DNA of 64,000 nucleotides from Sphagnum compactum (lineage: Eukaryota), in NCBI GenBank assembly GCA_965153455.1, contig OZ234493.1:19582213-19646212 (forward strand), written 5' to 3'. How positions within the stretch are numbered: position 1 is the first letter of the stretch; each line of letters starts with the position of its first letter. Of this stretch, positions 21,981 through 42,759 are shown in pieces. The position numbers were made by a program, and so were the translations under genes. Under the pieces are notes generated by a model. It was not told where the DNA came from, did no database searches, and worked only from the letters and a program-made list of their open reading frames with translations.

Positions 21981-22479
21981 CTAGTTCGCTGTTTTGCATT
22001 GAGATATTTCACACACATGCAGCACATGTGATTTATGACACGGTCACTTCAATGAAATCTTCCATTTGGTTTAGGGTTTCCTTGGTTTAGGATTTAGGGT
22101 TTAGGGTTCCCTTGGTTTAGTACCATCTAGTACCCTTCCATTTGGTGGTAAGTTAGGGCCATTACTGTCCTGTCCAAATTATGTGGTAGATAAAGCTCGG
22201 GCAGTAGGCCAGAGTGAACCAGCCCCCATGACTGCACCAGTTGACTGTTCTGTCCATAGGATGGGCTGGATGATTTGCCTCTTTTTCATTCACCTCTTTA
22301 CCTTACGTTAACCAACATTCTACCACAGTCAATCTTTTTTGGCTGCTGACCTTTGACCATTTCTTTTCATTGCCAAATTTTTCTCAACCCTGACCTCCAT
22401 ACTACCCACCCACCTAGCTACTATGCTGAACTAAATCTTAGCCCTGCCTATTAACTAAGAATTAATCAATTACTTACCT

Positions 22480-23190
22480 TGGCAAAACTTTTTATCTCCT
22501 CTTGGCTAAACTTATATTTCTTCTTGGCTAAACTTATAGTTTTTTTGGCTAAACTTCTATCTCTCGGAAAAACCTATATATTTTATTGGCTAAATTTCTA
22601 TCTCTTGGCTAAACCTATATATTTTATTGGCTAACTTTTATTTCTTCGTTAAACTTATATATATTTTTGACTAAACTTCTATCTCTTGGCTAATTCTATA
22701 TTTCTTCTTGGTTAAACTTATATTTCTTGACTAAACTTCTATCTCTTGGTTAAACCTATATATCTTACTAGCTAACTTCTATTTTTTGTTTAAACCTATA
22801 TTTCTTATTGGCTAAACTTCTATCTCTTGGTTAAACCTATATTTTTTCTTGGTTAAACTTATATTTTTTGGCTAAACTTCTATCTCTTGGCTATACCTAT
22901 ATTTCTTCTTGGCTAAACTACTTTTTCTTGGCTAAACTTCTCTCTCTTGGCAAAACTTATATCTTTTGGCTAAACTTATATTCTTTTTTGTTAAACTTAT
23001 ATTTCTTGATTAAACTTATATCCCTTGGCAAAACCTATATATCTTATTAGTTAAAATTATTTATTTTAGTTAGACCTATATTTCTTTTTGGTTAAATTTG
23101 TATATTTTGGCTAAACCTATATTTCTTCTTAGCTAAACTTCTATTTCTTGGCAAACTTTATATATCTTATTGGTTAAACTTATACCTAAT
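22480..23190 (+). repeat. Left subterminal minisatellite, ~20-22 bp unit
   Basis: About 30 degenerate copies of TTGG(C/T)TAAAC(C/T)T(A/C)TAT(T/C)TC. Confidence 0.9.
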
Positions 23191-24249
23191 TCCTACTCTA
23201 GAAATTAACCAAAAAGTAAATACATTTTTCAGTAATGCCATTTTAATTATTTGCAAAAGATCTATTTATTGGCAAAACCTACCTACTCACACATCATTAT
23301 ACCTACCTATGCACTTGCAAATTATGGACTTCAATTGCAAAAATTATAATGTAAAATGTGGGTATTGCAATTACGAGAATTGTTTTGGCAGCAATCCTTT
23401 ACCTCCACTTTGGACCATTTAATGCAAGATGTACTTAATTTAATTAAGGAATAGGCTTGATAAATTTAGAGTTAAAAAAAGATCAAACATTTATGAATAT
23501 TTGCACAATTTTTAATACTAATCAAAATCAATTTTAGGTTGGATTTTGGGGGGCAAATTTGGTCAAATTTTCACATACAAATACTTGCAACAGGATGCAT
23601 TTTATCTCTTTTGAAGGTGAATGAAAAAAGTCTCAAGTTGAAGTGACCGCACTAAAAGGAAGAGAATAAACTCTTATTTCATTCATTTAATTTTTTCTTT
23701 TCATTGTGTTTCAATTTTAATTCTTCACTCAATCTTAAAAAATTATTTTGTATGACATTTGTATATGTTTATATAGTTATTAATTTTTATGTCATTTACC
23801 ATTAAAATTGTTTAGGTTTATATATAAATTTTTGGGGCAATTAGTTTTAAACTCTAAGGCTAATGCTTCCATTCATTATAAATTTTAATTGATTATTTTT
23901 AAAATTCAAAACATAGTTGTTATAAATGGCTTTTGTATTCCATTTGTAGTTTTGTTTGTATAATCATTAGGTTGAAAACATTTCTCATTAGGATTATTTA
24001 AGGTTTTAAGTTTAAGGTTTAATGAAATTGTGTGTTGATTTATTTAGGTTGTGTTTTCAAATCAAGATACAACTCCTTTGAATGTGATATGATCCTTTAA
24101 CGTCAACGGTATGATATTTTTTCGTAATCATTTTCTTATGTTTTTTTATTGTTCCTAATTTAAGGAAATCAATTTCTTTGGATGGTTTTAATACGGTCAT
24201 CAAATTTCACTAAAAATGTTCCATGTTTGATATATGGATTTAACATTTT

Positions 24250-24850
24250 GGCCTCCCATAGATAGTGTGGATTTAAGGTCATAATGCTAATATTACATTT
24301 TGTCACCCACATATAGTGTGCATCTTTAAATTGTCATGTAGGTATTGCATTTCCCTCTCCCATATATAGTGTGGATTATGGTCATAATGTGGGTATTGCA
24401 CTTTCCCCCCCACATACAGTGTGCATCTTTAAATTATCATGTAGGTATTGCATTTAGGGCTCCGACATATAGTGTGGATTAAGGTCATAATGTGAGTATT
24501 GCATTTTCCCCCCATATATAGTGTGCATTTTTAAATTGTCATGCAGGTATTACATTTAGGGTTCGCACATATAGTGTGGATTAATGTCATAATGTGGGTA
24601 TTGCATTTTTTCCCCCATATACAATGTGCATATTTAAATTGTCATGCAGGTATTGCATTTAAGGCTCCCACATATAGTGTGGATTAAGGTCATAATGTGG
24701 GTATTGCATTTTTCCCCCATATATAGTGTGCATCTTTAAATTGTCATGTAGGTATTACATTTTTTTTTCCATAAATAGTGCAGTTTGTTAACTATCATGT
24801 GGGTATTACATTTAGATTATCCATAGATAATATGGATTTAAAATTTACAA
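24250..24850 (+). repeat. Tandem array of alternating ~51-bp A/B units (~103-bp dimer)
   Basis: ATAGTGTGGATTAAGGTCATAATGTGGGTATTGCA alternates with ATAGTGTGCATCTTTAAATTGTCATGTAGGTATTGCA. Motif positions 24341, 24392, 24444, 24495, 24546, 24597, 24649, 24700, 24751, 24802. Confidence 0.92.
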
Positions 24851-26779
24851 TTATGGCCAAAAACCATATCATATGTTCTCCATACTTAGCATTTAAGGTA
24901 TTATGTGCATGACTGTAAAGGGTTTAGATGAAGAATACAAATTAGGTACTTAAAACATGTACATTTGTATTAGTATTGAATATGACAATTAACATGTAAT
25001 TCAACATATTGCAAACATAAATTTTTGGACATCAATATCAATTTATTGTTTTTTCTTGTATAATCAGCTCAAGGCATAGTTTCAAACATGGGTCGTGTTT
25101 CAAAATCTCAATATATTGAGATTCAAAACCCAAAGAAGTCACGATTTAACAAAATGGACTTGGTGTGGAAAAAAAGATGTTCGACATGGAGGGGCACATA
25201 TAATCGAGGTTGAATGTGCATACATCCCACATGCACGAATCTCGGAATTTCTAAATGGTGAACAAAGCCATGAAGACTCCCCAATGGAGTGGAACATTTA
25301 TAAGCGGGTACCCTCACAAGAAAATGTAAAAATGCCAAGAATCCAAAACTGCCTCGACCATATTTGGTATGATATTTTATTATTCACTTTTGTTATATGG
25401 AACTTGTTTTTTAACTTCATATTGTACCAAACTTTAGGTCCTAAATTGATTTTACATTTTGTAGGTATACATGTGGGTATGGGCCAGAAGTTAATTGTGA
25501 AGACCCAAATCACCATCGATCCATTAAACGGGGTTGTTTAGTTCAATTTTCGATTAGGTGATTGTACACATGACCCGAAGTGGCAGAGATAATCTTCTAC
25601 CATTGAGCTCATACATGGCCAATGGTGAGCTTGCACTTGACAAACATGACCTTGATTCCATTGTGCGACCATCTTTTTTTGCCCCACAAATGTCACAAGC
25701 CCTTAAGGACCACATATGGACCCGATTGGGTTTAGGCTACATCGTCAAGTAAATATATGATAAACATAAGGCAATATGGTGGGCTAGAATCAATGCAAAA
25801 GAAGCGATGATAAGGGATGATTTCATTAGACAACAAGATATTACTTACTTGGATTGCAAACACAAAAAAAGGAGTTGACGTTTACACCAAAATCCTGTCG
25901 CACATGGGCATTTAGTCATCTAAATGATGTGTTTTAGTTTCAAGATGCAAGTGAGGATAATGGGATTCATGTCCCATTCATAATAAGGATACATACCCCA
26001 TTTTAATTGCAAGCCAGGGTTTCATGAGGTGATAATGGGGCAATCTCAATGGATGCCACTTTCGGCACCAATGATGTGAAATTTCATTTGTTCACATTGA
26101 TGGTGTTTGATGCACATCACAATGGAATGCTGGTTGCATGGATCAATACAAGCCTCCAAACATGCGATGATTTGGTGGAATGGTTAACTCCTTTGAAAAC
26201 AAAGTTTCTAAGGAAGAACCCTAAATGGAAACCTTCATGTTTCATCGTTGATGATGCTCCACAAGAAGTACGAGCATTGCGGTGAGTTTTATTTTCATTT
26301 TACCTTTTTTTGAGCTTTTATGTACATGCAGCCATTTCAAAATTTCATCCCACATTCTCCATTTTAAATAATGTTATTAGTTGAAATGATAGTAAATTGG
26401 AATTTTATGCATGGTTAGGATTGTGTGGGGTGATGATCAAGTGCCCATTTACCTTTGCACGTGACACATCTTAGAGGCTTGGTGCTTATGTTCGATGGAA
26501 AAAATCAAAGACAATGAAGTGCGACATGTAATATTGGATGACCTTCACACCGTCATGTATATGCCCATTGAACCAAGTGAAAGCATTGAAGCCTTCATGA
26601 TTTGTGGGAGAAATAAGATTGAAAGCTCCACCCAACATTTACTCGATGATTCATGGATTCGATATTTTTGGACCTATTATTTCCAAGTTGGTATGTGAAT
26701 TAACTTTCAATCCATTATTATTGTTGCACCATGTTGTGCATATCCCAAAATATTCACTCTTTGAATTAAGGTAAAAACA

Positions 26780-27090
26780 CCAATGGTGGATTTAGTAATC
26801 CCATGTGGGTGCAAAATGCAATACTCACATTAAGACCTTAATGTGGGAGCACTAAATGTAATACTTGCATGACAATTTAAAGTTGTACACTGTATGTGGG
26901 GGCAAAGTGCAATATTCACATTATGACCCTAATCCACACTATATGTGGGAGCTTTAAATGTAATACATGCATGATAATTTAAAGATGCACACTAAATATG
27001 GGGAAAAAATGCAATACCCACATTATGACCCTAATCCATATTATATATGGTAGAAATAATTGCACGACAATTTATAGATGCACACTGTAT
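26780..27090 (-). repeat. Inverted copy of the 51-bp array inside a transposase intron
   Basis: TGCAATACCCACATTATGACCCTAATCC and ATTTAAAGATGCACACT are reverse complements of the 24250-24850 units. Confidence 0.85.
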
Positions 27091-27507
27091 CTTGTTATAG
27101 ATTTGTGGATGGTGGGGCTTCGACAAGTGTCACATTCAAACCAAGACACACAAGCATCAATTGAGTCTTACCATGGGGCATTGAAACGTTGGTTCTCTTT
27201 GGAAACAAAATGGCTTCAAGGTCGACGACTTGATTGGTTAGTGTGGAGACTCACGACAACAGTTGCAATACATGCACACAACTAAAATGAAGAAACACAG
27301 GTTCATAAAAAAAAGGTTGTGGAACGCATTGTGAAAACAAATGTTGAAAAGGCCACATTGATCCCTCACACCAATGTCACCCATGGGATAGATGATTCGA
27401 ATGAAACTGGCCATGCATGGATGGTACGAAGCCAACAACATTTGAATATGACATATAAGGTCCCACTTCTTTTCACTAAGTATGCTTGTTGCACATGTGA
27501 ATGGGCG

Positions 27508-30000
27508 TGTGAGAAATTCTTGCACTCCTTCCACATGAAGATATGCACTCACAGACTCACTTGAGGGTGGAATTACTATGTAGTTGTATTCTAACAAGTT
27601 AAGGTGGTTCAATGTAATGTAATGAAATTCATTAATAATCTCATGCGTTGTGTTCACTTGGAAGATACCAAAACATTGTGGGAGAACCAAAACTCACCAT
27701 GATGGAATGTGAAGGAACATTATGTTGAGGTTAAATCCATGTTCACGCTTGATGATTGAATCCCCTTCGTTCCATTCGTCACAATATCCTCATACAACCT
27801 CCTAGTCTAACATGCATTGGGTTTTCGAAAAGCTAATATTAAAGGAGCAATGTTACAAAGTATTAGAAGTTTTTATTTCTGAAATCAAGAATTATGCCTC
27901 GAAACAAAGAAACTAATTTGACCAAATTTGAGGAAAAAACAGACAATTTCAACCCCCTCTACTTCCGGCAAGTGTAGCTTCCGTGCAGCAAACCCGATGA
28001 TGCTGAAATTTTGGGAGAACCTTTTACACCTCCTAAACTGAAACTGTTCAAAGTTTGAAACAAATCCAACGGTGGATTTGAGAGGAAAAACTATTTTAAA
28101 TAAGAATCCACAGGCTTGTTCATGGAAATCCTTCCATGAACCCCACTACAACTACTTGCCACACACAACTTCCTTCCATGCTCTTTTGTTTGCACACATT
28201 TTTTTTTCATGAACAACACTTTCTCACACATAAGAACTAATTCTTCTCTCACACACTCATTCTCTTCTTTTTTCCTCCGAAAAACACACAAGATACCACT
28301 TTCTTTGGTAAGCCTCCCATACCCCCTCCTTGAGCTTATTCTCCTTGTCCAATGGAAGTTTTGAAATCTTTCCCTCCAATTAATGGCCTCCTCATCCTTC
28401 ATGAACCAACGAGAGTCCAGAATGATTTTTCTTTTCTATGGAATTTAAGATGAGAATCATTATGCCCAATGAAACACTAAAAATGTTCTATTTTCTAATC
28501 AAATAGGATGATAATCCTCATGACCAATGGAATTGGAGGATTCATCCTTTTCCTTATCTTAAACATCTTGATGGGGTTCTTGAGCTCAATCATTGTCAAT
28601 TTCGTCCGTTTGAATTAACATCCTATTTCTTCATCCTAATTATTCTAAGTAACTAAATATTGGGATAATTTACTAGTAGTAATAAGTAACCATCCTTGAG
28701 CTTCCATTTGATTAAATCAACTCAACGGTAGTAATAACCTTTTCGTGTACCATTTACTCTTTTAATATTCCCTAGTTATTTTTTACTGTGTACTAAATAA
28801 TTATGTAGTACATAGTAAATTAGAATTAAATTTGGAATTACAAGGATTCCCATGTACTTCTAGATCCACCATCAATATTAAGGCTTCACGAATTTGTTGG
28901 AACTAAGATGTCCGGGTTTTCACGAAGTTCTGCCGTCATTGCCACGCCTTATGCCTACCCTAATCTCTTGAATAAAAGCAACGACCCCCTTCGAATGTAA
29001 ACGCTAAATTGTTTTGGCTACCTTTCGGTTTTTGTTGATGCATGTGAAAATTTAGTCATGGCGGATGATGTTGCTACGCCCTCGAATCCTCCAATTGCAC
29101 CAATAGAAAATGAAGAGCTTGAAGAAGCACCGCTTGACGTAGCATCACTTGACATGAATATCTTTCAACGGTCGCGTGAAAAAGAACCGTCCAGAAGAGT
29201 GGTGCGCATTCGAATCGATCGTTTGGCATGGGATCGTCGATTGTCTCCTAACCCACATGCTTTAGCAATTTATTTAGAATTTGTTCCTGCTCGTGGAACT
29301 GCGCCAGAAAGGTTTAAAGAGTGTCAATGTAAACACGACGATGTTCGTCTTCATTGTCGAACTTGGGTTCCTGGTGATGGCCATTATCATTGGCCACGAG
29401 GCCCAATCAACCCCCTTTCCATGGAGCATCGAACCGAATACCTAGCTTGCACCATTCGTCGCATTCAGGATTTTTTGCAATTGTCATCTATCCCCTCTAA
29501 GTCGTTTACTAATTTGTAATTCACCTGAGGCTACTCAGGTGAAAATGTTAATACTTGAGTTTGATTTTGATTCTATTTAAGAATCTGATAGAAGTGAAAA
29601 CTAAAAAAAGATGTATTGGGACTGCATCCTAGAAATCTTACAAGTACATCATTAATGTTTGAAGATTATTCTACAGACTAATTTAATATTGTCATGGCAA
29701 AATGTTAATGTTAGTTATGGGCTTGTATTCCCAATATATTAGTAAAATCAAATCTAATTCTACATCCTTTTTCACCTCTCTACAACCTAAAAGGATAATG
29801 CACTTTAAAAGGTTTACGTAGGTCCTAAAATTAACTAAACGTTACATCATCTTAAATAAAGAAGTTCTCTACACTTGGAAATATCCAAAGGCTAATTCAC
29901 CTATTAATAATTATTATTTGGAGGTTTATAAGGATTCAAATCATTATTACTAAGGAAAGTTATGGAACTAAAGCTTAACAATTTGTTGAATTATAATCCA
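27508..30000. mobile_element. 2.5 kb LTR-like insertion nested in the SWIM domain
   Basis: TG...CA ends flanked by TGGGCG (27502-27507, 30001-30006). Removing it restores E-W-A-L-R-G-N-L-C-K-H. Segment 27508-28924 has LTR-like TGTGA...TCAC(G) ends. Confidence 0.75.
29058..29519 (+). CDS. Hypothetical 153-aa protein inside the nested insertion
   Basis: Intact ATG-to-stop ORF, more GC-rich than its flanks, acidic N-terminus and Cys/His cluster (CQCKH...HC...HYH). No family recognised. Confidence 0.4.
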   Translation: MADDVATPSNPPIAPIENEELEEAPLDVASLDMNIFQRSREKEPSRRVVRIRIDRLAWDRRLSPNPHALAIYLEFVPARGTAPERFKECQCKHDDVRLHCRTWVPGDGHYHWPRGPINPLSMEHRTEYLACTIRRIQDFLQLSSIPSKSFTNL

Positions 30001-32790
30001 TGGGCGTTGCGTGGAAACTTGTGTAAACATCAAGTTGCCATTTTTCTTACATGTATCGATTTCACTAAAGAAAATATCATTCAATATTGTGGGACATGGT
30101 ATGGATATGATTATGCAGGTTTTGTTGCCATGTTTGCAGACCCTACCTATTTGCACATTTATGATAATGAATCTGATGATGAAGAGGTCGATGAAGATCA
30201 CTCTGAAAAACCATGGGTTGTTGATATGTGCGAGCTTATGAGATCGGATGATACCTCCCCCAATGTGGAAAAAGAACAAAGATCACAACCAACCTTCAAG
30301 TTCATCCACCCCCACAGAGAAAGCGCTTGTTCGAATGGGTGACATAATGCAAGAAATCATCAATGAAGTCAAAGAAGGTGGGGTTCAACTCATAGACCAC
30401 ACCACATCATTGTTGCGTGTTATTACAACAGATGTATAAGGTATTCGCCTTTCCAAAGTGAATGAAGTCATGCATCCCAAGCATGGTATTTCATTACATC
30501 AATGATGGACTTGGTAATTTAATGCACCGGATGAAAGATTGGCATGAGACGATGTTAGAACATGGAAATATCCGTAAAAAGAGGGCTGATGAGTAAAAAA
30601 AACACAAATTTGTTTGTACCTATCCCCCATTTTAAATTTCCATTACTAAAATGTGCATCATATTACAATTGTGTCAAAGAATAGATTATTTATGTGTTAA
30701 TGTGTTGATTTTTCTATCAGTGAACATATAGGGTTTGAAAGTTAAAGTTACATTATTAAGGCTATAGAACACATATCTTCTAAAACTCCCAAACAAGAAT
30801 ATTTCACTCAAACATCATATAAAGGTGGGTATAAAAAGTCAATTGTACAATAATCACCAGGTTAATACATGGGTAATGCTTACCCATCTTGTTTCTTGTG
30901 GCATTTAATTGGTATTGCATATAATTTTATATCTTTCATGGGTATTAATCATGTTAGATGAAGGTATTGCAAATTCCCTACTCCTTCCAGAGGGGCATTT
31001 GACCACTTAATGCAGGTATTGTCCTAACTTTTTCATTATAATGATGATTTGCTTTAGTTATAAATGTCATTTGGATATTTCTTATTGCATTTGGTCCATT
31101 AAATGTAGGTATTGCATTTGGTGAACAAGATTCCCCTAAGTAAACCTAGATGATGAAGGACTAAGATTTTGCAATACCTACATAATAAATTTTTATTAAC
31201 CAAAAGGGGGCTTTTGGTGAGGGTCCACAATATAAATTTATGTAGGTATAATGATAAGCTTACTACTATGGTAGATTGGTAATATTACATTATAGTAATA
31301 AAAGAAAAATTACCTTAATGATCACCTTAACACTCATTATAAATGATGTAGGTATTGCAAATTAAGGTTTGGAAAAATTAGGACACGCTCACAGTCAATG
31401 CTTACACCTAAAGATGAAGGTATTGATAATGGTTAATTTTTTAAAAATAGGTATCTTTTGGATACGTCTTATTGTTTTTATAAAATAAATGCATGTATTG
31501 CATTTGGTAAAAAAGATGATATTACATAACCTTAGATGACAAGGGAATAGGTTTTTGCATTATGAAATCAAGGGGGGTTACATAACATAGATTTACCTAG
31601 GTATTGCAATTTGGGATTTAACATATGGTGATAAGGTACGATATTACAAATTGAAAACTTTAACCTTCATCATGTATACATTACAACCTAATGCATGCAT
31701 AACTTTCAATTTGAAAAATTAAGCAAACTTATATAATGAACCTTAAAATGTTGAGTTAAAACATTTTTATCTAACAAAAAATCCTTACATTGACCCTAAA
31801 TTAAATAAACACAAAAAGAATTGGTTGCATAACTTTAGTGGTGGAATTTAATAATTTTTTAAAAACTAAGTGTTAAACCTAATTTTGGAATTATTTTTGC
31901 ATAACCCTAAATTGTGTACATATTATCAACTTATGTTTTAGACCTAATTTGGGGAGGACCCCAACCAGTGGGAAGGTTTTTTTATCATTCATACCTTTGT
32001 CACGGAATCATCTTCACTTTCCTCTCTTGTCATGAAAAAGAAAAGAAAAATAGGAACCTTGTTAGATATATGTGTGTATGTGAATACATAAATTCACTTA
32101 AAAAAATTTCATGAAAATAATATAAATGTTAAGAAAAAGGTTACCTTAAAACAATTAATGACAAAAAGGTGGGCTTAATTTCCTTAAACCCAATGTCCCC
32201 CCTATTTATTTGAAACATATATTAGGCAAAAGTTTAGATTAGGGTAATGGAACATGAACATGAGTTGGTTGATATGTGGGTATTGCAAATTTGAAATGCT
32301 TTATGGAGAACCCAACGATAAATAAGAGAAGATCAAAAGTTTGCAATACGTGCATAGACAAATCGATTTATGCACCAAGGGGTCTTTTCATGAAAATGGG
32401 CAATGTAATTATATAAAAATATTAAATTACATTTTTTCGTTAAGGTTATTGTGTGAGCATTTCATGATAAGGATAATGAAGGTATTGTTTAAATGCTCTA
32501 GCATGGCCGCAAAATGTGCTAACCCTATTAAATGAAGGTATTGCTTATTTGGTTTATAGTAAATGTAATCCATTCGTAATGGATGGGGATATTGTGTAAC
32601 ACGGCATAAGATTAACCCAAAATCTAAAAATCCCAAAATTAGAGGTCAAAATTAAAACAAGTGGATTAATACAAAAGTGTTCAAGTAACCACACTATAAA
32701 AAGGATGGTGACAAAAATATATCATTCTAAATTCATCTATAATGGTTCGATACAAAATGGTGCATATGTGCATTAAAGTTATATCTATAA

Positions 32791-34297
32791 TTATTCCTCC
32801 TCCGAGGATGAACTAAAAGGAATGCCCATACTGGTGCGATATTCTGCTGAAATTTTTACAGCTTTTGCTGCATGGTGATGAGTAAATAGTTGACGATGTT
32901 CAAGCACAAGTTGAATTGCATTTGCAACAAAAGCTCCCTTGTTGTGCCCCGAAGCCTAACACAAGAAAACAAAAAAACAAATTACATTCCAATGTTAAGA
33001 TGCAAACAATGTTTATATATATATATATATATATATGGAAATATATCGCCCATGAATGATTTCAGAATCATGATACTTGGATATTGCATCCATTTCTTTT
33101 ACTCGGTTACATTTACTAGATTCCAATGTCTAATTCTGAGTGCTTCATGCAACTTTCAAAGGCTTTGCATAAGCAACTTTGCTTGCCCGAATTGTCTCAA
33201 CAAGGTTCTCGCCCTTTTCAAGGCGTGCCCATGCACTTTGTGGGATGAACCCACCCCCCATGCTGGAATCCCAATGATGCCCAACAAGATTTTGGAGGCT
33301 AAAAGTACCAACAAAGGCCGTTTAACTTGTTCCATTTGTTGCGCTTGGGTTTGGAGTTCATCCCATTCTAAAGTTTTTTTTTTCATTATATCGAAAGCTT
33401 TCTTTTCATTCCGCTTTCGCCTTGCATGTGGGTTGCTCAAAATTTGAGCATTCATAGCATGGTGATTTTGTTGCCTTGGTCCCCCAACACGAGTAGAAGG
33501 ACCCAGATTTGCCTACCTCCATGTGAAGCCCGTGTTTGTTGTCCAAATGCTGACGAAGTAACCATTTAGTCACATAAGCGTTGGTTCATCCATTGATCTT
33601 ACACTTCCACCTTGACCTTTTGTGCACCCATTTTGCATATTCCATTACATGATTTGGTGGTACTTCTACTTGATCATTTTCATGTGAAGCCACCGGAGCC
33701 CCTACAAGAACAACATTCAAAATCAAACCAGAAAATAGTCCTTAATAATGATGAAAGTATTGCAAACAAGCTAACAATAAAAACTTACAAAATATGAAGG
33801 TATTGCAAATAGACCAGCAAGAAAACCCTACACAATATGAAGGTATTGCAAATAAATTAGCAAGAGATTTTTAAAAATATGGAGGCATTACAAACTAGCA
33901 AATAAACATTAAATACAAGGAGGGCATTGCAAATAGGCTAGAAATTAAAACCTTCAAACAATAGGGATATTGCTTGGAAAAAATTGGGCAAACAAATACC
34001 CCATCCCCATTTTCAAATAAAGAATGAAGATGGGGTTTAAGGTTTGGATTGGGATTTTTTATTCGTAATGTGTTGCATTACACTATTAAAAACCCTATCA
34101 TGTGAAATGTATCATCCATCACAACAAATTTACTTTCAAAAATAGGAGTGGGATTAAGGTTTACCTTCAAAAGTAGGAGTATAGATGATAATTTTTTTTT
34201 CCACTTCAATTTCCTCTTCATTTGCTACAACATTCACTTGTTGATTATCAACAGTCACCTTTTTTTGGCGTTTAAGTTTCTTCCAGGGATGTGCCAT
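32791..34297 (-). pseudogene. Second MULE gene: 3-exon C2H2 zinc-finger protein, convergent with the transposase, decayed
   Basis: Exon 1 34297-34165 (MAHPWKKLKRQKKVTVDNQQ...TPTFE, phase-1 GT) joins in frame to exon 2 from 33701 (GAPVASHE...WKCKING*TNAYVTKWLLRQHLDNKH...NPHARRKRNEKK...). Exon 3 32955-32791 is open (ASGHNKGAFVANAIQLVLEHRQ...SSSSEEE*). Stop at the second Cys position; frameshifts in exon 2. Confidence 0.72.
33745..33980 (+). repeat. ~43-bp tandem repeat in intron 1 of the zinc-finger gene
   Basis: ATGAAGGTATTGCAAA-like cores at 33756, 33799, 33842, 33884, 33923, 33966. Confidence 0.8.
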
Positions 34298-34849
34298 CCT
34301 ACAACAAAAGCACTCAAATCCTTAAACAACAATCAATCCAAAAAAGAAAAACAAAAGCTTGGATCTCCCCAACAATAGCAATTGCCACCACTACCCAAGA
34401 ACTTCAAGCTCCCTTAAACAAATAATTGCAAAAGGGATAGTAACTTATTTTTCCAACTTGCTACAACTTTTTAATACAAAAACAACAACTTGAAACAAGA
34501 CGAATTATAAATTTAAATGTTCCCAATATCAATAATAAATATTGTTCATTATATTTAAATGCTTAAAAGCCCTATACCTTAGAAGTTTTATTTTCGATTA
34601 AAATGAATTATTATAGGCTAATTATAAAATTTAATTATTGTAACTATATTTTTCATTATAATCAAATTGAATTAATATAAAAATCATAAAGTTATATTAT
34701 TAAATTTATTTTTTATTATAATTATTTGGTTATATTCAATAATTATTTACATGATTTCATTATAAATAATTTTTTTATAATTGAAATTTTATTAATAATT
34801 ACATTAAATCTTGGGCATGACACGTGGTGCTTTTGTGTATAACAACTAA

Positions 34850-37085
34850 AAAAACAACAGAAGACGATGACAAGCCCAGATCTTGGTTCATCGTCGTCTT
34901 TTGCACTTGAGGAAAAAAATCAAGAGACGACAACAAATCGACAGGTTCGTTGTCATTTTCTGCACTTGAAAAAAAACCCAAGAGATGACAACGAGCCGGA
35001 GCCCCTTAGCTCGTCGTCATCTTTTGCATTTGAAGAAAAAAACCAAAAGACGGTGATGAGCCTCTCGGCTTGTCTTCATCTTTTGCACCTAAGAAAAAAA
35101 CCAAGAAATGACGACGAGCCTCCCGGTTCACTATCATCTGCTACACCTGAGAAAAAAACAAAGAGATGACAATGAGCTAGGGATGCTCGTCATCATCTAC
35201 TACACATGAAAAAAAAAACAAAAAAATGATGACGAGCTAGGGAGGCTCGCCATCATTTGCTACACCTAAGAAAGAAAACAAACAGATGACGATGAGCCTC
35301 TTGGCTTGTCGTCATCTTCTACACCTGAGGAAAAAAAACAAAGAAATGATGACGAGCTAAGGAGGCTTGCCGTCATCTACTACACATGAGGAAAAAAAAA
35401 AAGATGACGACGAGCCTTTCGGCTTGTCGTCATCTTTTACACCTGAGAAAAAAAACAAAAAGATGACGATGAGCCAGGAGGCTTGTCGTCATCTTCTACA
35501 CTTGAGGAAAAAACCAAAAGACGTTCATTGCATTCCTTGTTCTTTCCCTGCATTTTTCAACAGCTGAAGAAAACCAAATAAATGCAAATTGTTGTGGTTA
35601 TACTGTGGGGTGCTTACAATAGCCTAGTAGATTCATAGGGAAAGCTCTGAATGACCTCCATGAACAGGAGAACATTTTATTCTGTAGAGAAAGAGAAGTC
35701 ACTAGCAGTATAAAAACTTGCAAAGAAAGTCAGGGCATGAGTGAAATTTCTTCTCTAAAGAAGAATCAAGAAAGAAAAAACAAATTAAAGGACTCTCAAG
35801 AGTCCTTGTGCTCCAAATCTTTGCTTCCAATTGCAACAATTTTGAATTCGGCATGCAAAGTTGAGGAATGGGTCAACTTCAAAATTGTGCTAGCTGTGAA
35901 CTTTATAATGTTTGTGCACACATGCTTTTTCAGAAGTGCAATTCACATGACACAATGATGACATCCAATTACCCAGGTTGAAGCACTAGGATATGTTTGG
36001 GTTAGTCATGAAAGAAGCCTCAAGGTAAGAAAAGTCTTCAGACCTCACATGTTAGTCTATTCACACCCTTTATACTACTCCCTTTGTGTGCACGGAATTT
36101 GTCTATGCATTGGTTTCCTTGTGGTACTTTTACTTTCACACAATTGAAGCAAAACAACTGAAGACAACAATAAACCAGGATCCCGGCTCGTCGTTGTCGT
36201 TTTCTACACTTGAGGAAAAAAATCAAGAGATGACGACAAGCCTCTCGACTTGTCATTGTCTTCTGCACCTATATAAAAAAATGCAGAAATTGACAACAAG
36301 CTGGGAGGCTCGTTGTCATCTTTTACAATTGAAGCAAAACAACTAAAAACAACGACGAGCTAGGATCCCGGCTCGTCGTCGTCTTCTGCACTTGAGGAAA
36401 AAACCAAGAGATGACGAGGAGCCTCTTGGCTCATTGTCATCTTCTACAATTGAAGAAAAAAATGTAAAAAACGATAGTGAGTCGAGAGGTTCGTTGTTGT
36501 TTTCTAGAACTAAAGGAAAAAAAACCAAGGGCGACAACGAGCTAGGATTCCGGCTTGTTGTTGTCTTGTGTAATTGAGAAAAAAAACATTAAAAGGCAAC
36601 GACGAGCTGGGAGGCTCATCGTCTTTTGTGATTGGAGAAAAACAATCAAGGATGATGACGAGTTGAGATCCTAGCTTGTCGTCATCTTCTACAAATGAGG
36701 AAAAAAAACAAAGAGACGAGGATGAGTCGGGAGGCTTGTTGTCATCTCCTACAACCCAAGAAAAACCAACATCAAGGTTTTTTTTCTTGGGTTGTAGAGG
36801 ATGATGACAAGCCGGAAGGCTTGTCATCCTCTTTTGGGTTTCTATGTTTTTTTTTCATGAATTATAGAAGACGATGATGAGTGGGGAGGCTCGTCATTGT
36901 TTCTTGCAATGCAAGAAACAAAAATAGAAGACAAGGACGAAACACATTCATTGTTGTCTTTTGCCCTGGTTTCATAAGAAGGACAGAATACAACAACAAA
37001 CATTGCATTTGTTGTCATCTTCTGCCGTAATCTCATAAGGACAGTAGAAGACAAAAATGAGTGCAACATTCATAATCATCTTCTT
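34850..37085. repeat. Right subterminal array of ~58-60 bp hairpin units
   Basis: Consensus GATGACGACGAGC-(5-8 nt)-GCTCGTCGTCATCTTCTACACxTGAGGAAAAAAA; more than 20 decayed copies; interrupted by non-repetitive DNA at ~35525-36140. Confidence 0.9.
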
Positions 37086-38779
37086 TGCAAGGGAACAAAA
37101 GTGAAAAAGCCTTTTCAACATCGTTTTTTGTAGCACCGCTTCTGTTCTTGAGTGGTGGTGAGGTTTAGGGTTTTTGCTGGGGTGGAGCTAGGTAGTTGGG
37201 GTTTGAAATGCTTGGGCAGTCAAATAGATTTTTTTTATGGGTAGCCTTGAAGTAAGTGAGGGAAAAAAAAATGACCCAACCTCAATGCCTACAGTAGATC
37301 CAATAATTGGGATGAACTTGAGTTCATCCCAAATGGAATTGGTGTAGTCATGGGGGCTGGGTCACTCCGACTCGGGCAGTAGCGTTTACTCCACAAAGGG
37401 TGTGCATGTGCAGTGGAGCCGAACTTGGGCTTAATTCCAGTAAATCCCGTGGTGGAGGGTTTTATCATAGGTAAATATCTTACAAAATTTTATTATTTTT
37501 TGTTGCGTTGGGCTTCAAAATGTAAGAGCAAGATATAATCAAAATAAGATGAAATGTCCTTGTTAGGTTGTGGTCCATCCCCATTAAATCTTTTAAGACT
37601 ACAACATGTGCATTTTATGTTCTTTGAAGATCATAACATTCATGCATGCAAGGCCAAACATATCTTGACCAAAATTGTTTATGTTCTAATGTGTGTGTGC
37701 ATGTATATCATATTGTTGGGTATAGGTATTAGATGATCATTGGGCTGTAATGCATGGTGTCCTTATACAACAACCATTTCACTAGAATGCATGTTGATAA
37801 AATGGGGCCAAACAATATTATTGAGGTCAAAGTCAAACTTGACATGTAAACATAAGGTATGACATACACTATATGTATCACCATTCAACATCCACTTGAA
37901 GAACCTTAGATAAATAGCTACAAGTCTCTTGACATTTAAGAATGCATGGACATGCATTTTGGAATCATAGGCTTAAGGTCAATATCAGTTTCAAGATTTT
38001 GTATCTTGATTGGGGTGTGTTGGCTTTACACTACATTTGTGCAGGCTTGCACAATACTCTAAATAATGCATACATATCTTCAAGTGACTAACTTTTGTGT
38101 GCGTCGTAGGCAATCCAAGTGGAAGATGGCGAGAAGTTGAAATTGTTCATGGACATGGTTAAAAAAATAATCATCTAGAGTGGTAATTCAACCCCGTATA
38201 TGGTGACACATCACATTGGTATGTTTTAAGCTTAAATGTTCATGATATTCAAGTCCTTTTTGAAAACCATCACATATTCAATCCATGTTGTAGGCACCCT
38301 AACTTGATGTTTAATGCAAATGTGTAACCTTAAACATAATAACATGCAACTTCTCTTAGAACCTTAGATCTACGACTTGCACTTTGATGAGGTATTTTTA
38401 ACATGTTGTGATGCAGAAAACTTTAACAACTTGCAAATTCATTGAACATCTTGGTAGCAATGGTTGGTGAGGTGAAGTGAGTGAGGTGCTATTACACTTG
38501 TGATTTTCCAACAATAGTTCCATTCATGCCAAACCTAGTGAAATCCCCATGAAACTTAAGAAATTAATGTTTGTGTATTGTAATGAGTATTGAGTCCCAC
38601 ACATGTACATTTTAAGTTTTTAGCATTGCAAATGAAAATGTTACAATTTCAACTTTGCACCTTGAAGCTTGAAATTAAGACCCTAAACCAACCAAAATGG
38701 AGTACACAGTGACCATTACAAAAATATGTGGTCATGTTTAAACCATACAAAAAGTTTAGAATACATTTCCACTGAGACA

Positions 38780-39857: not shown

Positions 39858-41258
39858 AAAGCTCATTTTCTAGGAAAACAAAACTTTTACTTTGGGATTG
39901 CAAGGCTTTGTGAGATTTTTCCCTTTCCTTTTTGCTACTAAGTTGTTTTTTGTGGGAAAATGCATCAACTGATATGAATTGTGATGGGAAAATGTGTAAT
40001 GAATTTCCTTCGTTCTTGTTTTTCGGGTTTCCAAAGTTATGTTTTAATGTTTGAGTTGAGTTGTTTGTTGTTATGGTGTTTTGCTAAAAACTAAATAATT
40101 TATTTATTTTATGTGCACAAGGGGTCAAATTTCTTTTCCTTAAATGTGTCTTTCTATACACAAAAGGACCCAATTTGAAGCACTTGTGAATATTTTTATG
40201 TGCCCAAAGCCTCCAATTTGTAATCATTTCATTGTTGTTTAATGTCACTTTGAACCCCCATGATTGAACATAAGTTTGCACAAAATTGTTCACAAATGCC
40301 TAGGTTCCCAAACACCTTGTTTAAAAGGATGTTTGTCCTACCCATTATTCCCAAACATTTATTTCACAAATATGATTTGCAAAATTAAAATTTTCGAACA
40401 CAAAATTTATGGCGAAAAGTTGTAAAATTCCATTGTATTGTCAAAACATGACATGATTCCATAGTGTAATTTGGTTCTATTACAATACTACAAAAAAATC
40501 TCAAATTGCTTAAAAAAGATTTTGAAAAGCATAAAACATATGGGGTTTTTATCAATGTTGGCAAGTATTAAGAAAATTGTGAAAATTGGCTAGGGGTTTT
40601 GGATGGTCCTCATAATGAACATCAATGGATATCATATAAAATGATATCTGTCATGATATCCTAATCATTAATTTTAATTGAAATAGAAATTATCATTTTG
40701 AAAACTAGGCGTTTCATGTATTTATCAAATATTGATACCTATGCAAGGTAATGGAAGATGCCTAGGGTAGGTTTTTAGGAGTTTACTATCTATTCTAGGT
40801 AGTAGGAGATTGTTGACATGTTTTAAAAGCTTGTAAGGGAATCCAATGCTTTAAATTTTAGGTCTAGGGAATTAATGCGGCCGTCGATCAACGGACATCT
40901 TTAATGGAAAGGGAAAACTTTCCTTCACATAGATAAAAGGGCCAAAGTTTTAACTTGGACCCCACTTTTCTCCATCACTTTGAGTGTTTGGAAGTTGTGT
41001 TGTTGAGGATTTGTGTGCATTAAAGTTATTGAAACTTTTTTCTTTTCTTCCTCAATTCATAGTTTTGCTTATGCATATTCTTTTTAGTTTTCATTTTCCT
41101 TGTGCATTTGTATCTTGGTAGTGCCAGTGTTGCTCCGTTAGGTATGTGCTTGTGTTCTTGGCTTTGTTTGCACGTCTTTTTCTTGGTTCTTGATTCTGCT
41201 TGTTGATCTATCTCGTGTACTCCCCCCCCTTGTTTGCTTGTGCAAGTGTGAGATCATA

Positions 41259-42076
41259 TGTCGCAACCCCAATCTTGAGAGAGTGTGAAGATGAAGACTC
41301 ACACTCCCGAAATGGGAACTTGGGAGTTTGCTGGGACTCCCAAAACTTCAGAGAGCAATTGCAGGGGTCAAAACACTTTGCATTGGGGAGTTCTTTATAT
41401 CATTGGAAAAGCTATTAAAGTGTAGATGTCTAAAATGGGCTCGCATGACCCATTTGGACATCTGCAACACAAGTTATGGCAAAAAGAAAGGCCGGAAGTC
41501 AAACTAGCAGTTTGACTCCCGACCACAAAAAGTCAAGAATCGACCCGACCCCTGTGCATGCAGGTGGAGTGTGACACACCGTTGGAAAGCTCTCAACAAG
41601 AGCTACAACTTGCTTGAGACCTCATCCCGATCGGAGGTCTAAGCAAAAAGTTATAGTCTCGCAAAGTTGAGGGAGTCCAAACCTTGGTAGTTTCGAGACT
41701 CCTCCTTGGGAGTTCCGGGACAAAAAGCCATTCGAATGTAGCCGCCGCGGAGAGATGTAGAGAATACTATATGGGGAAAGGTGGTGGCTTCCCCCGAGTT
41801 CGGGCCGTGGTGAGTCTTGTGAGTCCAAAGTTGCCCATGGCTTGTCCTTTGGTGCTCCAAACGGTATTCTAACCATATTGTTGGTTGGTTTGATGTAGAT
41901 TCGAGTGAGTAACTAGAATGCTTGTCACTCTTCCTAGTCCCATCCCGGAGCCTCAGCACGCCCTTCTACCCCTTTGAAGTGCTAAGAGTTGGGAGTGTGC
42001 CTCGAGCTCCTAACATTTCCGCTGTTCACTACCGTAGACTCTTCTTGAGTCTATCAAGGAGCTTGGGAGCGCGTCA
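41259..42076. mobile_element. Solo LTR (818 bp)
   Basis: TGTCGC...GCGTCA termini; perfect 5-bp TSD TCATA at 41254-41258 and 42077-42081; GC-richer than flanks. Confidence 0.9.
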
Positions 42077-42759
42077 TCATAACATTTCTTTCTTGGCTCT
42101 TGATTTTGCTTATTGATTTATCACATAAATTTTTTTCCCTTTGTTTTTTTGTGCAAGTGTTAAATTGTAGGAGGTTCGACTATCAAGATTAAAGTTTAGT
42201 TCCAAGCTTCAAATTTTTGTAATTAAAAAAAACATTTAAAGTTTTTCTTGGTTTTTTTTGGGTTTTTTTGGGTTTTTTATTTTAAAATTTTTTTGATCAT
42301 GTTTTTTCAATTTTTTTTGGTTTTATTTTTTTATTTTTTTGGTTGCTTATTTTTTGTTACATTTTTTCTTTTATTATTTATTATTTTAAATATTAATTAT
42401 GATTTTTATTGTTGTGCATGATCTACATGTGTTTAATATTTACATTGGTTTTGCATCATCTTACATTTAATTCCCATTGCACAAATTTCTCACATTATGG
42501 TGGATAAGAAATGGAAAAGTGAGTTATTTTATATCTTTGTAAATGTTTCTAAATGTTGGCATGCTTTCATTTTATAGGATTTCCTAAGATGTTTGTTAGA
42601 ATTTAATGTGATACAATACATTTGCTTGGGCTTCTCAAATGAAAGATGGAACAATCTAGTGAAAATGAAAATAGACCAATGCTTGAAATTTTCATGAATG
42701 AAGTTGAAATGGATGAAAACCCAATCCAAGAAGATTGGTTTTAGGGTTGATCGTAGGAT

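Follow-up and report, generated by a model that had tools for sequence, protein, structure and literature searches.

A decayed second gene with a C2H2 zinc finger, probably encoded by a Mutator-like transposon family of Sphagnum

Introduction

Accessory genes make some Mutator elements unusually successful, through new insertions in the case of MURB and through sequence-specific escape from silencing in the case of VANC. Few kinds of accessory gene are known, and those documented in the sources available to us come from flowering plants, yeast and insects. In the accessible text of a survey of Mutator-like elements (MULEs) neither "moss" nor "Physcomitrella" occurs, and the second ORF or additional domain tabulated there for the mainly flowering-plant clades is PMD (PMC6446971); a literature search turned up no description of such an accessory gene in a moss MULE.

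The question is raised by a 64,000-nucleotide stretch of the Sphagnum compactum genome (hereafter the window), in which an initial annotation proposed a hidden three-exon gene within a MULE, encoding a C2H2 zinc finger with a stop codon in place of its second cysteine, and a product that would read a short motif arrayed in the gene's own first intron. Is this a gene at all, does it belong to the element, and what might its protein have done?

Results

The element and its transposase

The locus lies within a MULE of about 15.2 kb (Table 1), recognised by terminal inverted repeats (TIRs) of about 36 bp and a 9-bp target-site duplication; the accessible survey text gives 8-11 bp as the MULE range (PMC6446971). 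Copy-to-copy similarity ends at both features, dropping sharply at 22196-22212 in 20 related loci and at 37364-37372 in 27 of 28 (loci not de-duplicated in either count). Other complete copies carry 9-bp duplications 5 nt outside a GAGTGA core (ACCTTACAG in copy L039; 8/9 in L076). Identity between the window's two duplication copies happens to extend to 12 bp.

The MULE transposase domain (PF10551) scores 29.9 bits in the window and 32.8 bits in L039 against a cut-off of 27.6. Downstream of the catalytic domain a SWIM-type CxC...CxH is visible, interrupted in the window between CTCEWA and LRGNLCKH by a nested insertion whose junctions can be read in the sequence, and uninterrupted in L039; its Pfam score in the window is 13.7 bits against a cut-off of 19.6, and the L039 ORF gives no SWIM match. 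The 500-base bins covering 27501-30000, where the nested element sits, show zero similarity to the 80 related loci.

Table 1. Features of the element and of its second gene in the window
Feature	Position	Strand	Remarks
Whole Mutator-like element	22207..37372	.	15,166 bp, nested insertion included
Target-site duplication	22198..22206 (left); 37373..37381 (right)	.	CGGGCAGTA, 9 bp
Left terminal inverted repeat	22207..22242	+	Inverted pair of 31 nt, 90% complementary
Left subterminal array of TTGGCTAAAC	22479..23278	+	24 sites at up to 1 mismatch
GGTATTGCA array	24244..24762	+	103-bp unit x5, two motifs per unit; upstream of recognisable transposase coding region
Transposase remnants, 5' part	26028..27508	+	MULE domain and first half of SWIM finger
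Inverted copy of the 24244..24762 array	26841..27050	-	Between transposase coding segments; presumed intron
Nested insertion (another element)	27509..29999	.	2.49 kb; 8-bp duplication ATGGGCGT on both sides
Transposase remnants, 3' part	30000..30439	+	Second SWIM half and C-terminus; true end maybe ~150 nt further
Dispersed GGTATTGCA sites	30911..32287	+	7 exact, 1 on opposite strand; between both genes' 3' ends
Exon 3	32791..32955	-	Stop codon TAA 32793-32791
Intron 2	32956..33046	-	91 nt; consensus GT...AG, window donor AT
Exon 2	33047..33701	-	C2H2 finger, GRP-containing basic linker, basic helix, helical domain
C2H2 zinc finger	33532..33603	-	Family pattern C-x4-C-x12-H-x4-H
TGA in place of second Cys	33586..33588	-	Consensus codon 83
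Intron 1	33702..34164	-	Acceptor ag 33703-33702; contains 43-bp tandem array
43-bp tandem array of GGTATTGCA motif	33751..33865		Intron 1
Exon 1	34165..34297	-	ATG 34297-34295; basic N-terminus KKLKRQKK
Right-hand array of ~60-bp palindromic units	35031..35521	.	GATGACGACGAGC...GGCTTGTCGTCATC
Right terminal inverted repeat	37337..37372	-	Partner of left TIR; TIRs ~36 bp

Structure and decay of the second gene

The gene (-, 34297-32791) is convergent with the transposase gene (+, 26028-30439). Copies were gathered from metagenome contigs (226 related stretches), and 53 non-redundant copies yield a consensus with an open spliced ORF of 319 codons (960 nt) and GT-AG introns, so that the ancestral gene, as reconstructed from its copies, has three exons and encodes a 319-aa protein. 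Exon 1 translates as MAHPWKKLKRQKK...YTPTFE, has one further base (G, 34165) and borders on gtaaac; its ATG is kept in 35 of the 35 non-redundant copies covering that site (window included), and the donor of intron 1 is GT in 33 of 36 other copies covering it. With the acceptor at 33703-33702, exon 2 starts at 33701 and the junction reads GAA G/GG GCT in phase, exactly as first proposed for the joining of the KKLKRQKK exon to the finger exon.

Exon 2 of the window contains RWKCKING, a stop, and TNAYVTKWLLRQHLDNKHGLHME, and thus the reported W-K-C-x4-stop-x3-Y-x5-L-x2-H-x4-H. Its downstream border had been misplaced: the intron claimed at 33156-32956 is mostly coding in the relatives, the real intron 2 being the shorter one of Table 1, with a donor of GT in 46 and AT in 5 of the 51 other copies covering that site. 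The basic helix HARRKRNEKK reported after the finger does occur in the ORF at 33512-33156, although in another frame. An unspliced moss ORF (P0164) has an insert where intron 2 sits, and the C-terminus encoded by exon 3 aligns with that of a protein of the moss Ceratodon purpureus (see below). In RNA data, one raw run gave 0 reads and the contig runs gave four short pieces of less than 95% likeness, too little to speak for or against the gene's expression and splicing.

The window copy is a pseudogene, incapable of the proposed helper role. The TGA is real, but it is one of many lesions, where the initial annotation had seen a single one: in total there are three stops, three frameshifting deletions and a lost intron-2 donor. 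Exon 2 holds the three stops, two of the frameshifting deletions and one in-frame 3-nt deletion, and exon 3 a 1-nt deletion near 32936. The TGA is private to this copy: in 53 other non-redundant copies the codon is TGC (49), TGT (3) or TAC (1), i.e., Cys in 52 of 53 as had been expected, and Cys also occupies this position in 16/16 aligned ORF-proteins (38 close ORF-proteins were found). None of the 33 copies spanning all exons has an intact gene.

A window copy that on its own is full of stops, and whose ORF list has only pieces, is what would be seen if these were chance ORFs and no gene existed. The second-Cys alignment, the open consensus ORF and the family profile, which 431 database proteins match at E <= 0.001, refute that reading, and relatives extend to another moss genus; we give it practically no probability.

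The encoded protein and its homologues

From its basic N-terminus the protein continues into a single classical C2H2 finger, a GRP-containing basic linker that is disordered, a basic helix and a helical C-terminal part that matches no known fold. In the window the ligand codons of the finger lie at 33603-33601 (Cys1), 33549-33547 (His1) and 33534-33532 (His2), with the TGA at 33588-33586 in place of Cys2; in the 53 other copies Cys1 is kept in 51, Cys2 in 52, His1 in 49 and His2 in 51. The classical pattern (C-x2-4-C-x12-H-x3-5-H with conserved aromatic and Leu) is present in the family consensus and the moss homologues, and the family profile matches the DNA-binding fingers of GLI (E 2.8e-6) and TFIIIA (8.7e-5). 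AlphaFold2 (AF2) predicts a beta-beta-alpha finger (hairpin and helix) with block-mean pLDDT of 81-93 (P0180) and 70-84 (P0013), followed by a confident helix; elsewhere the models are poor (pTM 0.28 and 0.31). The assignment as a classical C2H2 finger thus held under structure prediction. In a Foldseek search of the P0180 model against the PDB there were 0 matches at E <= 0.001, and the non-significant C2H2 rows had an rmsd of 0.3-0.9 A over 20-28 columns.

Pfam searches of each window exon, seven relatives and the moss protein found no family at or above threshold, DUF1985, DUF287 and the ULP1 domain included, in line with the annotated absence of VANC or ULP1 likeness; the best zf-C2H2 scores lie under the gathering thresholds (PF00096, 17.3 for P0067 and 15.4 for P0180 vs 25.2; PF13894, 17.6 vs 27). 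At the finger-helix positions where base contacts are usual, the family has Ala, Trp, Leu and Gln (alignment read by eye), which is not a set typical for base reading. One zinc finger reads only about 3 bp.

These properties bear on a different role, in which the protein would be a MURB-like partner that helps transposition through contact with the transposase (for example, at integration), its finger making general or target-site DNA contact. Consistent with this, most of the protein is helical without a DNA-binding signature in the AF2 models, the presumed base-contact positions are hydrophobic, and the two convergent genes repeat the layout of MuDR; MURB binds the N-terminus of MURA and is required for new insertions, according to the available part of PMC12973397.

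In homologues of 20-45% identity the finger and the GRP/basic linker are conserved, together with two motifs, MN and WGxG. The distant ones include C. purpureus KAG0595890.1 (305 aa), annotated as an ordinary gene; a search of the 80 related loci and of the rest of the window found none of them. With one exception, the proteins listed in the family searches are unnamed or "hypothetical" and ORF-sized, and the aligned pieces differ in length and frame.

Copies, linkage and selection

Of 24 non-redundant copies whose downstream flank spans 5 kb or more, 20 have a transposase on the opposite strand, which bears out the linkage anticipated by the initial annotation, and the open consensus shows that the multi-exon gene is a genuine part of the element and no isolated captured fragment. 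One of the four copies without transposase is a deletion derivative that retains both ends and the accessory gene.

The purifying selection that had been suggested as a further check gave no signal among copies in any of three comparisons: between codon positions, between exons and introns, and of omega with that in shifted-frame controls. Diversity is 0.159, 0.128 and 0.124 at the three codon positions, and exons (0.137) are not more conserved than introns (0.103 and 0.153). The true frame has an omega of 0.69 and the shifted frames 0.38 and 0.60, values below 1 that arise because the transition/transversion ratio is 3.8. The family structure is near star-shaped, with a median pairwise distance of 0.136; average-linkage clustering places 48 of 54 sequences in one cluster at a distance of 0.16, and 53 of 54 at 0.20.

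Absent selection among copies would suit a captured host gene, i.e., Pack-MULE-type cargo amplified with the element and never serving it, as would the annotation of the Ceratodon homologue as an ordinary gene and the frequency with which MULEs pick up host genes (accessible text of PMC6446971). We consider this improbable: the consensus is no fragment but retains the entire gene, from start to stop codon and with both introns, the listed relatives are nearly all unnamed pieces of the kind described above, and the deletion derivative lost its transposase yet kept the accessory gene. Two weaker indications point the same way, namely that no fused or longer host form was found among 8000 candidates and that the single diverged copy L078 has a lower omega in the true frame (0.38) than in the shifted frames (0.59 and 0.76).

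Motif arrays in the non-coding DNA of the element

The commonest 9-mer within the element is GGTATTGCA, of which the window has 17 exact occurrences, all inside the element and none in the exons of the accessory gene. At up to 1 mismatch there are 36 sites against 17.4 expected, a number reached in none of 100 shuffles; six other non-redundant complete copies have 4-14 exact sites each, and their flanks 0-1. Its arrays are confined to non-coding parts, including, as first reported, the gene's own first intron, where motif-like words start at 33756, 33799, 33842 and 33923 (two exact, two with one mismatch). At least two instances (up to 1 mismatch) are present in 38 of 39 copies spanning intron 1, whose length varies from 375 to 549 nt in steps of ~43 bp as array units are gained and lost. 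The element has two further repeat arrays: that of TTGGCTAAAC at the left end, which has no mirror counterpart at the right, and the right-hand palindromes, similar units of which continue to ~36900 and are a source of spurious ORFs on both strands.

Discussion

The locus is almost certainly a decayed copy of a second, element-encoded gene of a Mutator-like transposon family. Taken as a whole, the explanation we favor, that this gene encoded a DNA-binding helper acting on the element, seems to us to have an even chance of being correct. The more specific proposal is a tentative one, somewhat less likely than not: the protein would be a nuclear helper that binds specific sequences in the element's own non-coding DNA, with the tandem arrays of GGTATTGCA upstream of the transposase, in a presumed transposase intron, between both genes and in the helper's own first intron as its likeliest targets, and it would regulate or de-silence the element as VANC does for VANDAL21. 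That the protein reads GGTATTGCA, which the initial annotation took to be obvious, is no more than a reasonable hypothesis, to which the transposase is a serious rival; the 24-site TTGGCTAAAC array and the 60-bp palindromes could equally be the protein's targets. Several observations weigh against the proposal: the single finger, which would read about 3 bp, has contact residues atypical of base reading, the models are poor outside the finger and one helix, and the copies show neither purifying selection nor, among the 33 that span all exons, an intact gene.

MULE transposases bind their own elements. If the protein were the MURB-like partner outlined above, the GGTATTGCA arrays would be read by the transposase, or would be promoter, small-RNA or slippage features without a dedicated reader. 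In favor of this, a MULE transposase alone activates cognate copies sequence-specifically, as stated in the available part of a 2026 preprint, and a Cys/His-rich segment upstream of the MULE domain (25445-25752) resembles, by eye, the WRKY-GCM1-type N-terminal fingers described for MULE transposases in the accessible portion of PMC1702500. Against it, the Pfam search of six N-terminal transposase fragments found no DNA-binding domain, and the arrays are internal, not subterminal, and hence not where the transposase must bind for cutting. We regard this alternative as a substantial possibility, if short of probable.

A broader view, which we hold to be speculative and rather unlikely, is that a two-part self-recognition module arose in bryophyte MULEs independently of VANDAL/VANC, in which a single-C2H2 GRP-linker protein and fast-turnover 9-bp target arrays (GGTATTGCA in this family), spread over introns, upstream region and intergenic DNA, would confine regulation or de-silencing to own copies; different motifs would then be expected in related families, along with corresponding changes in the finger or linker. 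Should the link between protein and motif be true, modules for self-targeted regulation would have a multiple origin in MULEs, and this one would provide a small finger-plus-linker protein whose 9-bp site is defined; should it be false, the locus is no more than a dead copy of a so far undescribed transposon gene. The accessory family, a further kind, has no Pfam model, belongs to a high-copy MULE family and has relatives in another moss genus.

Comparison with known systems

The closest precedents are mudrB of MuDR, VANC of the VANDAL elements, and the C2H2 second ORFs of Spectre and Mutyl. Among fingers of known proteins, GLI finger 5, TFIIIA, YY1 and ZNF410 share the C-x4-C-x12-H-x4-H spacing, the conserved aromatic and Leu and the beta-beta-alpha model (E from 2.8e-6 to 0.022 with the family profile over these C-x4-C fingers); they differ from the Sphagnum protein, which has a single finger instead of an array, scores below the Pfam gathering threshold and is unmatched over its remainder. 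Spectre (aphid) and MutB of Mutyl (Yarrowia) are, as described, similar in having a MULE second ORF with a C2H2 finger or DNA-binding role (accessible text of PMC6446971), although their hosts are an animal and a yeast.

MuDR has long TIRs carrying promoters, unlike the ~36-bp TIRs of the Sphagnum element, and MURB, to our knowledge, has no zinc finger. In common with the gene described here, mudrB is the second gene of a MULE, lies in convergent orientation to that of the transposase, and encodes a small protein without a known domain family that is needed as a helper (available parts of PMC6446971 and PMC12973397).

VANC (VANC21 and VANC6 of Arabidopsis VANDAL MULEs) is likewise the product of a MULE accessory gene. 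It is unrelated in sequence to the Sphagnum protein, which has a C2H2 finger: its domains, DUF1985 and DUF287 (PMC5735166, accessible text), were not found in the window exons, seven relatives and the moss protein. The Sphagnum family also has two genes vs three, and motif binding and anti-silencing have been demonstrated for VANC, whereas the present system is known from its sequence. What the two share is a short motif in variable tandem repeats of the element's non-coding regions, with repeat numbers that differ between copies: according to the accessible text of PMC5735166, VANC21 binds a 9-base motif in dynamic tandem repeats of the introns, intergenic and upstream regions of VANDAL21. 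The layout of the motif arrays in the Sphagnum element thus matches VANC, the one system in which such arrays are known targets of an accessory protein.

The accessory gene

The minus-strand zinc-finger locus is almost certainly the Mutator-like element's (MULE's) own second gene. The majority consensus of 53 copies reads as a single open spliced frame of 319 codons plus stop, and this frame, together with linkage to the transposase, bears out the multi-exon accessory gene proposed in the initial annotation. As also proposed there, exon 1 joins exon 2 in phase at an ag acceptor (GAA G/GG, window read on the minus strand), and the window matches exactly the broken C2H2 pattern described, NHVMEYAKWVHKRSRWKCKING and TNAYVTKWLLRQHLDNKHGLHME lying on either side of the stop in the exon 2 protein. 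Intron 2 had been drawn too long: most of it (33156-33047) is coding, being read through in relatives (...AYAKPLKxAWGxxNWTLESNKxNRVKEMDAISKYHDSEIIHGR) and kept in distant homologues too.

Features of the accessory gene and its host element (window positions unless a locus is named; exon and intron lengths are those of the consensus)
Feature	Position	Strand	Details
Exon 1 (start ATG)	34297-34165 (ATG 34297-34295)	minus	133 nt; opens MAHPWKKLKRQKKVTVDNQQVNVVANEEEIEVEKKIIIYTPTFE, then G at 34165, then gtaaac
Intron 1			463 nt, GT...AG
Exon 2 acceptor ag	33703-33702	minus	then GG GCT...
Exon 2	33701-33047	minus	661 nt
First Cys codon of finger	33603-33601	minus
TGA at second-Cys codon	33588-33586	minus	lesion, C83 TGC>TGA
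His codons of finger	33549-33547; 33534-33532	minus
Intron 2	33046-32956	minus	89 nt, GT...AG, phase 2
Exon 3	32955-32791	minus	166 nt
Lesion	near 33504		2-nt deletion
Lesion	near 33374		3-nt deletion
Lesion	near 33254		1-nt deletion
Lesion	33147-33145		W232 TGG>TGA
Lesion	33132-33130		W237 TGG>TAG
Lesion	33046-33045		intron-2 donor GT to AT
Lesion	near 32936		1-nt deletion
Target-site duplication	22198-22206; 37373-37381		CGGGCAGTA, flanks both ends
Left-end array	22479-23278		24 TTGGCTAAAC sites, ~20-bp units, left end only
GGTATTGCA array	24244-24762		103-bp x 5, upstream of recognisable transposase coding region
GGTATTGCA array, inverted copy	26841-27050		between transposase coding segments
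Nested insertion	27509-29999		2.49 kb, 8-bp duplication ATGGGCGT; no similarity to MULE copies; inside SWIM finger
GGTATTGCA scattered sites			between 3' ends of accessory and transposase genes
GGTATTGCA array, intron 1			43-bp x 2.7
Right-end array	34850-36900		~60-bp palindromic units
~0.8-kb repeat, nested copies	L037 6577-7395; L053 3114-3877; L062 2380-3205

Decay of the window copy and of the family

An exon 2 query with X at the stop returned 38 ORF-proteins (66-83% identity), and Cys occupies the stop position in 16/16 of those aligned. Scanning metagenome contigs with one of these ORF-proteins (P0013) matched 244 stretches, 226 of them encoding a relative; 80 loci were kept, and removal of near-identical loci (>98.5% identity) left 53 copies plus the window. 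The Cys codon looked for at the stop position is present in 52 of these 53 copies (49 TGC and 3 TGT; the last has TAC), and TGA is private to the window copy. Among the 53, the other finger residues are also kept: Cys1 in 51, His1 in 49 and His2 in 51. With the lesions tabulated, the window copy is a pseudogene, an ordinary dead relic. At least one in-frame stop is found in all 54 sequences, no intact gene occurs among the 33 copies spanning all three exons, and the least damaged copies (L003, L007 and L009) each carry a single stop without any frameshift.

Relationships among the copies are close to star-like (median pairwise distance 0.136). Purifying selection, which the initial annotation had suggested checking, gave no signal among the copies by codon position, exon versus intron, or omega against shifted frames: diversity is 0.159, 0.128 and 0.124 at codon positions 1, 2 and 3; exons (0.137) are not better preserved than introns (0.103 and 0.153); and pooled omega, calculated against the consensus, comes to 0.69 for the true frame and to 0.38 and 0.60 for the wrong ones, as expected of neutral decay with a ts/tv of 3.8. 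The outlier copy L078 (omega 0.38 in the true frame versus 0.59 and 0.76) offers, as a single copy, a weak hint of constraint. The past function of the gene therefore rests on its intact consensus and deep conservation.

Relatives and structure of the protein

HMMER with the 118-aa ORF against 1.84 billion representatives gave 87 matches at E <= 0.001, all short ORF pieces. A profile search gave 431 at E <= 0.001, including an annotated 305-aa moss protein, KAG0595890.1 from Ceratodon purpureus, that carries C-x4-C-x12-H-x4-H and whose C-terminus aligns with exon 3. Several homologues of 20-45% identity keep the finger, the basic linker (GRP or RPR), 'QDHxxMN' and 'LGIxxWGVG'; a related unspliced ORF (P0164) has about 45 extra residues exactly at the family's intron 2 position, which we read as a putative conserved intron. 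No longer fused form of the protein was found, which is weak evidence. That the locus is a captured host gene is very improbable, because the gene structure is complete and all relatives seen are purely fragmentary and multi-copy.

A single C2H2 finger is present in the protein, and the family profile matches DNA-binding C2H2 fingers in PDB (GLI, E 2.8e-6; TFIIIA, E 8.7e-5; more weakly ZNF410, GLI1 and YY1). The overall quality of the AF2 models is poor (pTM 0.28 and 0.31; mean pLDDT 60.7 and 64.3), with fair confidence for a beta-hairpin and helix at the finger and for a long helix across the basic stretch flagged in the initial annotation; the GRP linker is predicted to be disordered, and Foldseek returned no significant structural match.

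The host element and its transposase

The loci resemble the window from 22207 to about 37370, with a gap over the 500-base bins 27501-30000. On the left the similarity breaks off abruptly at 22196-22212 (20 loci), on the right at 37364-37372 (27/28 loci); loci were not de-duplicated for these counts. The termini are imperfect inverted repeats of ~36 bp, and in other complete copies, too, duplications of 9 bp sit at this offset. Decayed transposase pieces lie on the plus strand: the MULE domain exceeds the Pfam cut-off, and a SWIM-like finger (CxC...CxH) is split in the window by the nested insertion, which has no detected terminal inverted repeat; 172 aa within it (29001-29519) are open and match no Pfam family.

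The accessory gene lies ~3.1 kb inward of the right end and is transcribed toward the transposase gene. The transposase is on the opposite strand in 20 of 24 non-redundant loci with at least 5 kb beyond the accessory gene, the suggested linkage thus holding among loci preselected by that gene. In three of the four exceptions similarity just ends; the other is a ~8.95-kb deletion derivative, one locus seen in four samples (L053, L054, L057 and L059), which joins window ~25203 to ~31844. This derivative has lost the whole transposase but still has the accessory gene, the motif array upstream and the two ends of the element. A ~0.8-kb repeat found outside the element in the window (41026-42100) is nested in several related copies, in both orientations. 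There it sits a short way upstream of the accessory gene, separating the parts that match window ~34320-34940 and ~35000; it may be another small transposon preferring that site.

Motif arrays

Many copies of a family-specific 9-mer, GGTATTGCA, are spread through the non-coding DNA of the element. This is the element's most frequent 9-mer, with 17 exact matches in the window, all within 23361-33842 and none in accessory-gene exons; transposase segments matching other copies have none except inside the repeated array itself. Other complete copies have 4-14 exact matches each, versus 0-1 in their flanks. The array noticed earlier in the first intron is present in the window, and at least two instances (<=1 mismatch) occur in 38 of 39 copies spanning that intron, whose length steps by ~43 bp (375, ~420, ~462, ~505 and ~548 nt); the array therefore gains and loses units. 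The upstream array and the one between transposase coding segments are inverted copies of each other (24408-24570 and 26841-27003), with 163-nt arms, 87% complementary and about 2.3 kb apart. A transcript spanning both could pair with itself into a long hairpin, from which small RNAs directed against the element might arise.

Inside the terminal repeats the two ends are unlike each other, and the palindromic units of the right end account for long but spurious ORFs on either strand (DDNEP/SSSS-rich 'proteins'). Nine sites resembling TTGGCTAAAC, the left-array word, cluster on the minus strand at 60923-62670, a stretch that resembles none of the 80 loci. Another MULE family that shares the word may have its subterminal array here.

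Proposed role and comparison with known systems

The accessory protein would enter the nucleus via its basic N-terminus, bind DNA through the finger and the adjoining basic GRP linker and helix, and act on the element's own arrays. By analogy, we tentatively regard it as a possible VANC-like reader of GGTATTGCA. The main rival is a MURB-like helper that acts by way of the transposase; the arrays would then have the transposase as their reader, or no reader. This rival is likewise conceivable while falling short of probable: MURB binds the N-terminus of MURA (a portion of PMC12973397), cognate copies can be activated by a MULE transposase acting by itself (part of a preprint), two further arrays (TTGGCTAAAC x24 at the left, 60-bp palindromes at the right) also need readers, and the presumed base-contact positions of the finger are mostly hydrophobic. 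Against this, Pfam gives no DNA-binding domain in transposase N-terminal fragments, and the arrays are internal, not terminal.

MULE accessory genes already known include mudrB, vanB, vanC, MutB of Mutyl and a C2H2 ORF of aphid Spectre (sections of PMC6446971). The present protein is not VANC, because VANC domains were looked for and are absent. The family is also absent from Pfam (no match at threshold for the protein or its relatives), and no description of it turned up in the literature searched. For a reader of GGTATTGCA, the closest parallel is VANC21/VANDAL21, in which, according to parts of PMC5735166, the accessory protein binds a 9-base motif in variable tandem repeats. In VANDAL21 these repeats occupy VANB and VANC introns, the region upstream of VANA and intergenic stretches, the same array architecture as in the Sphagnum element.
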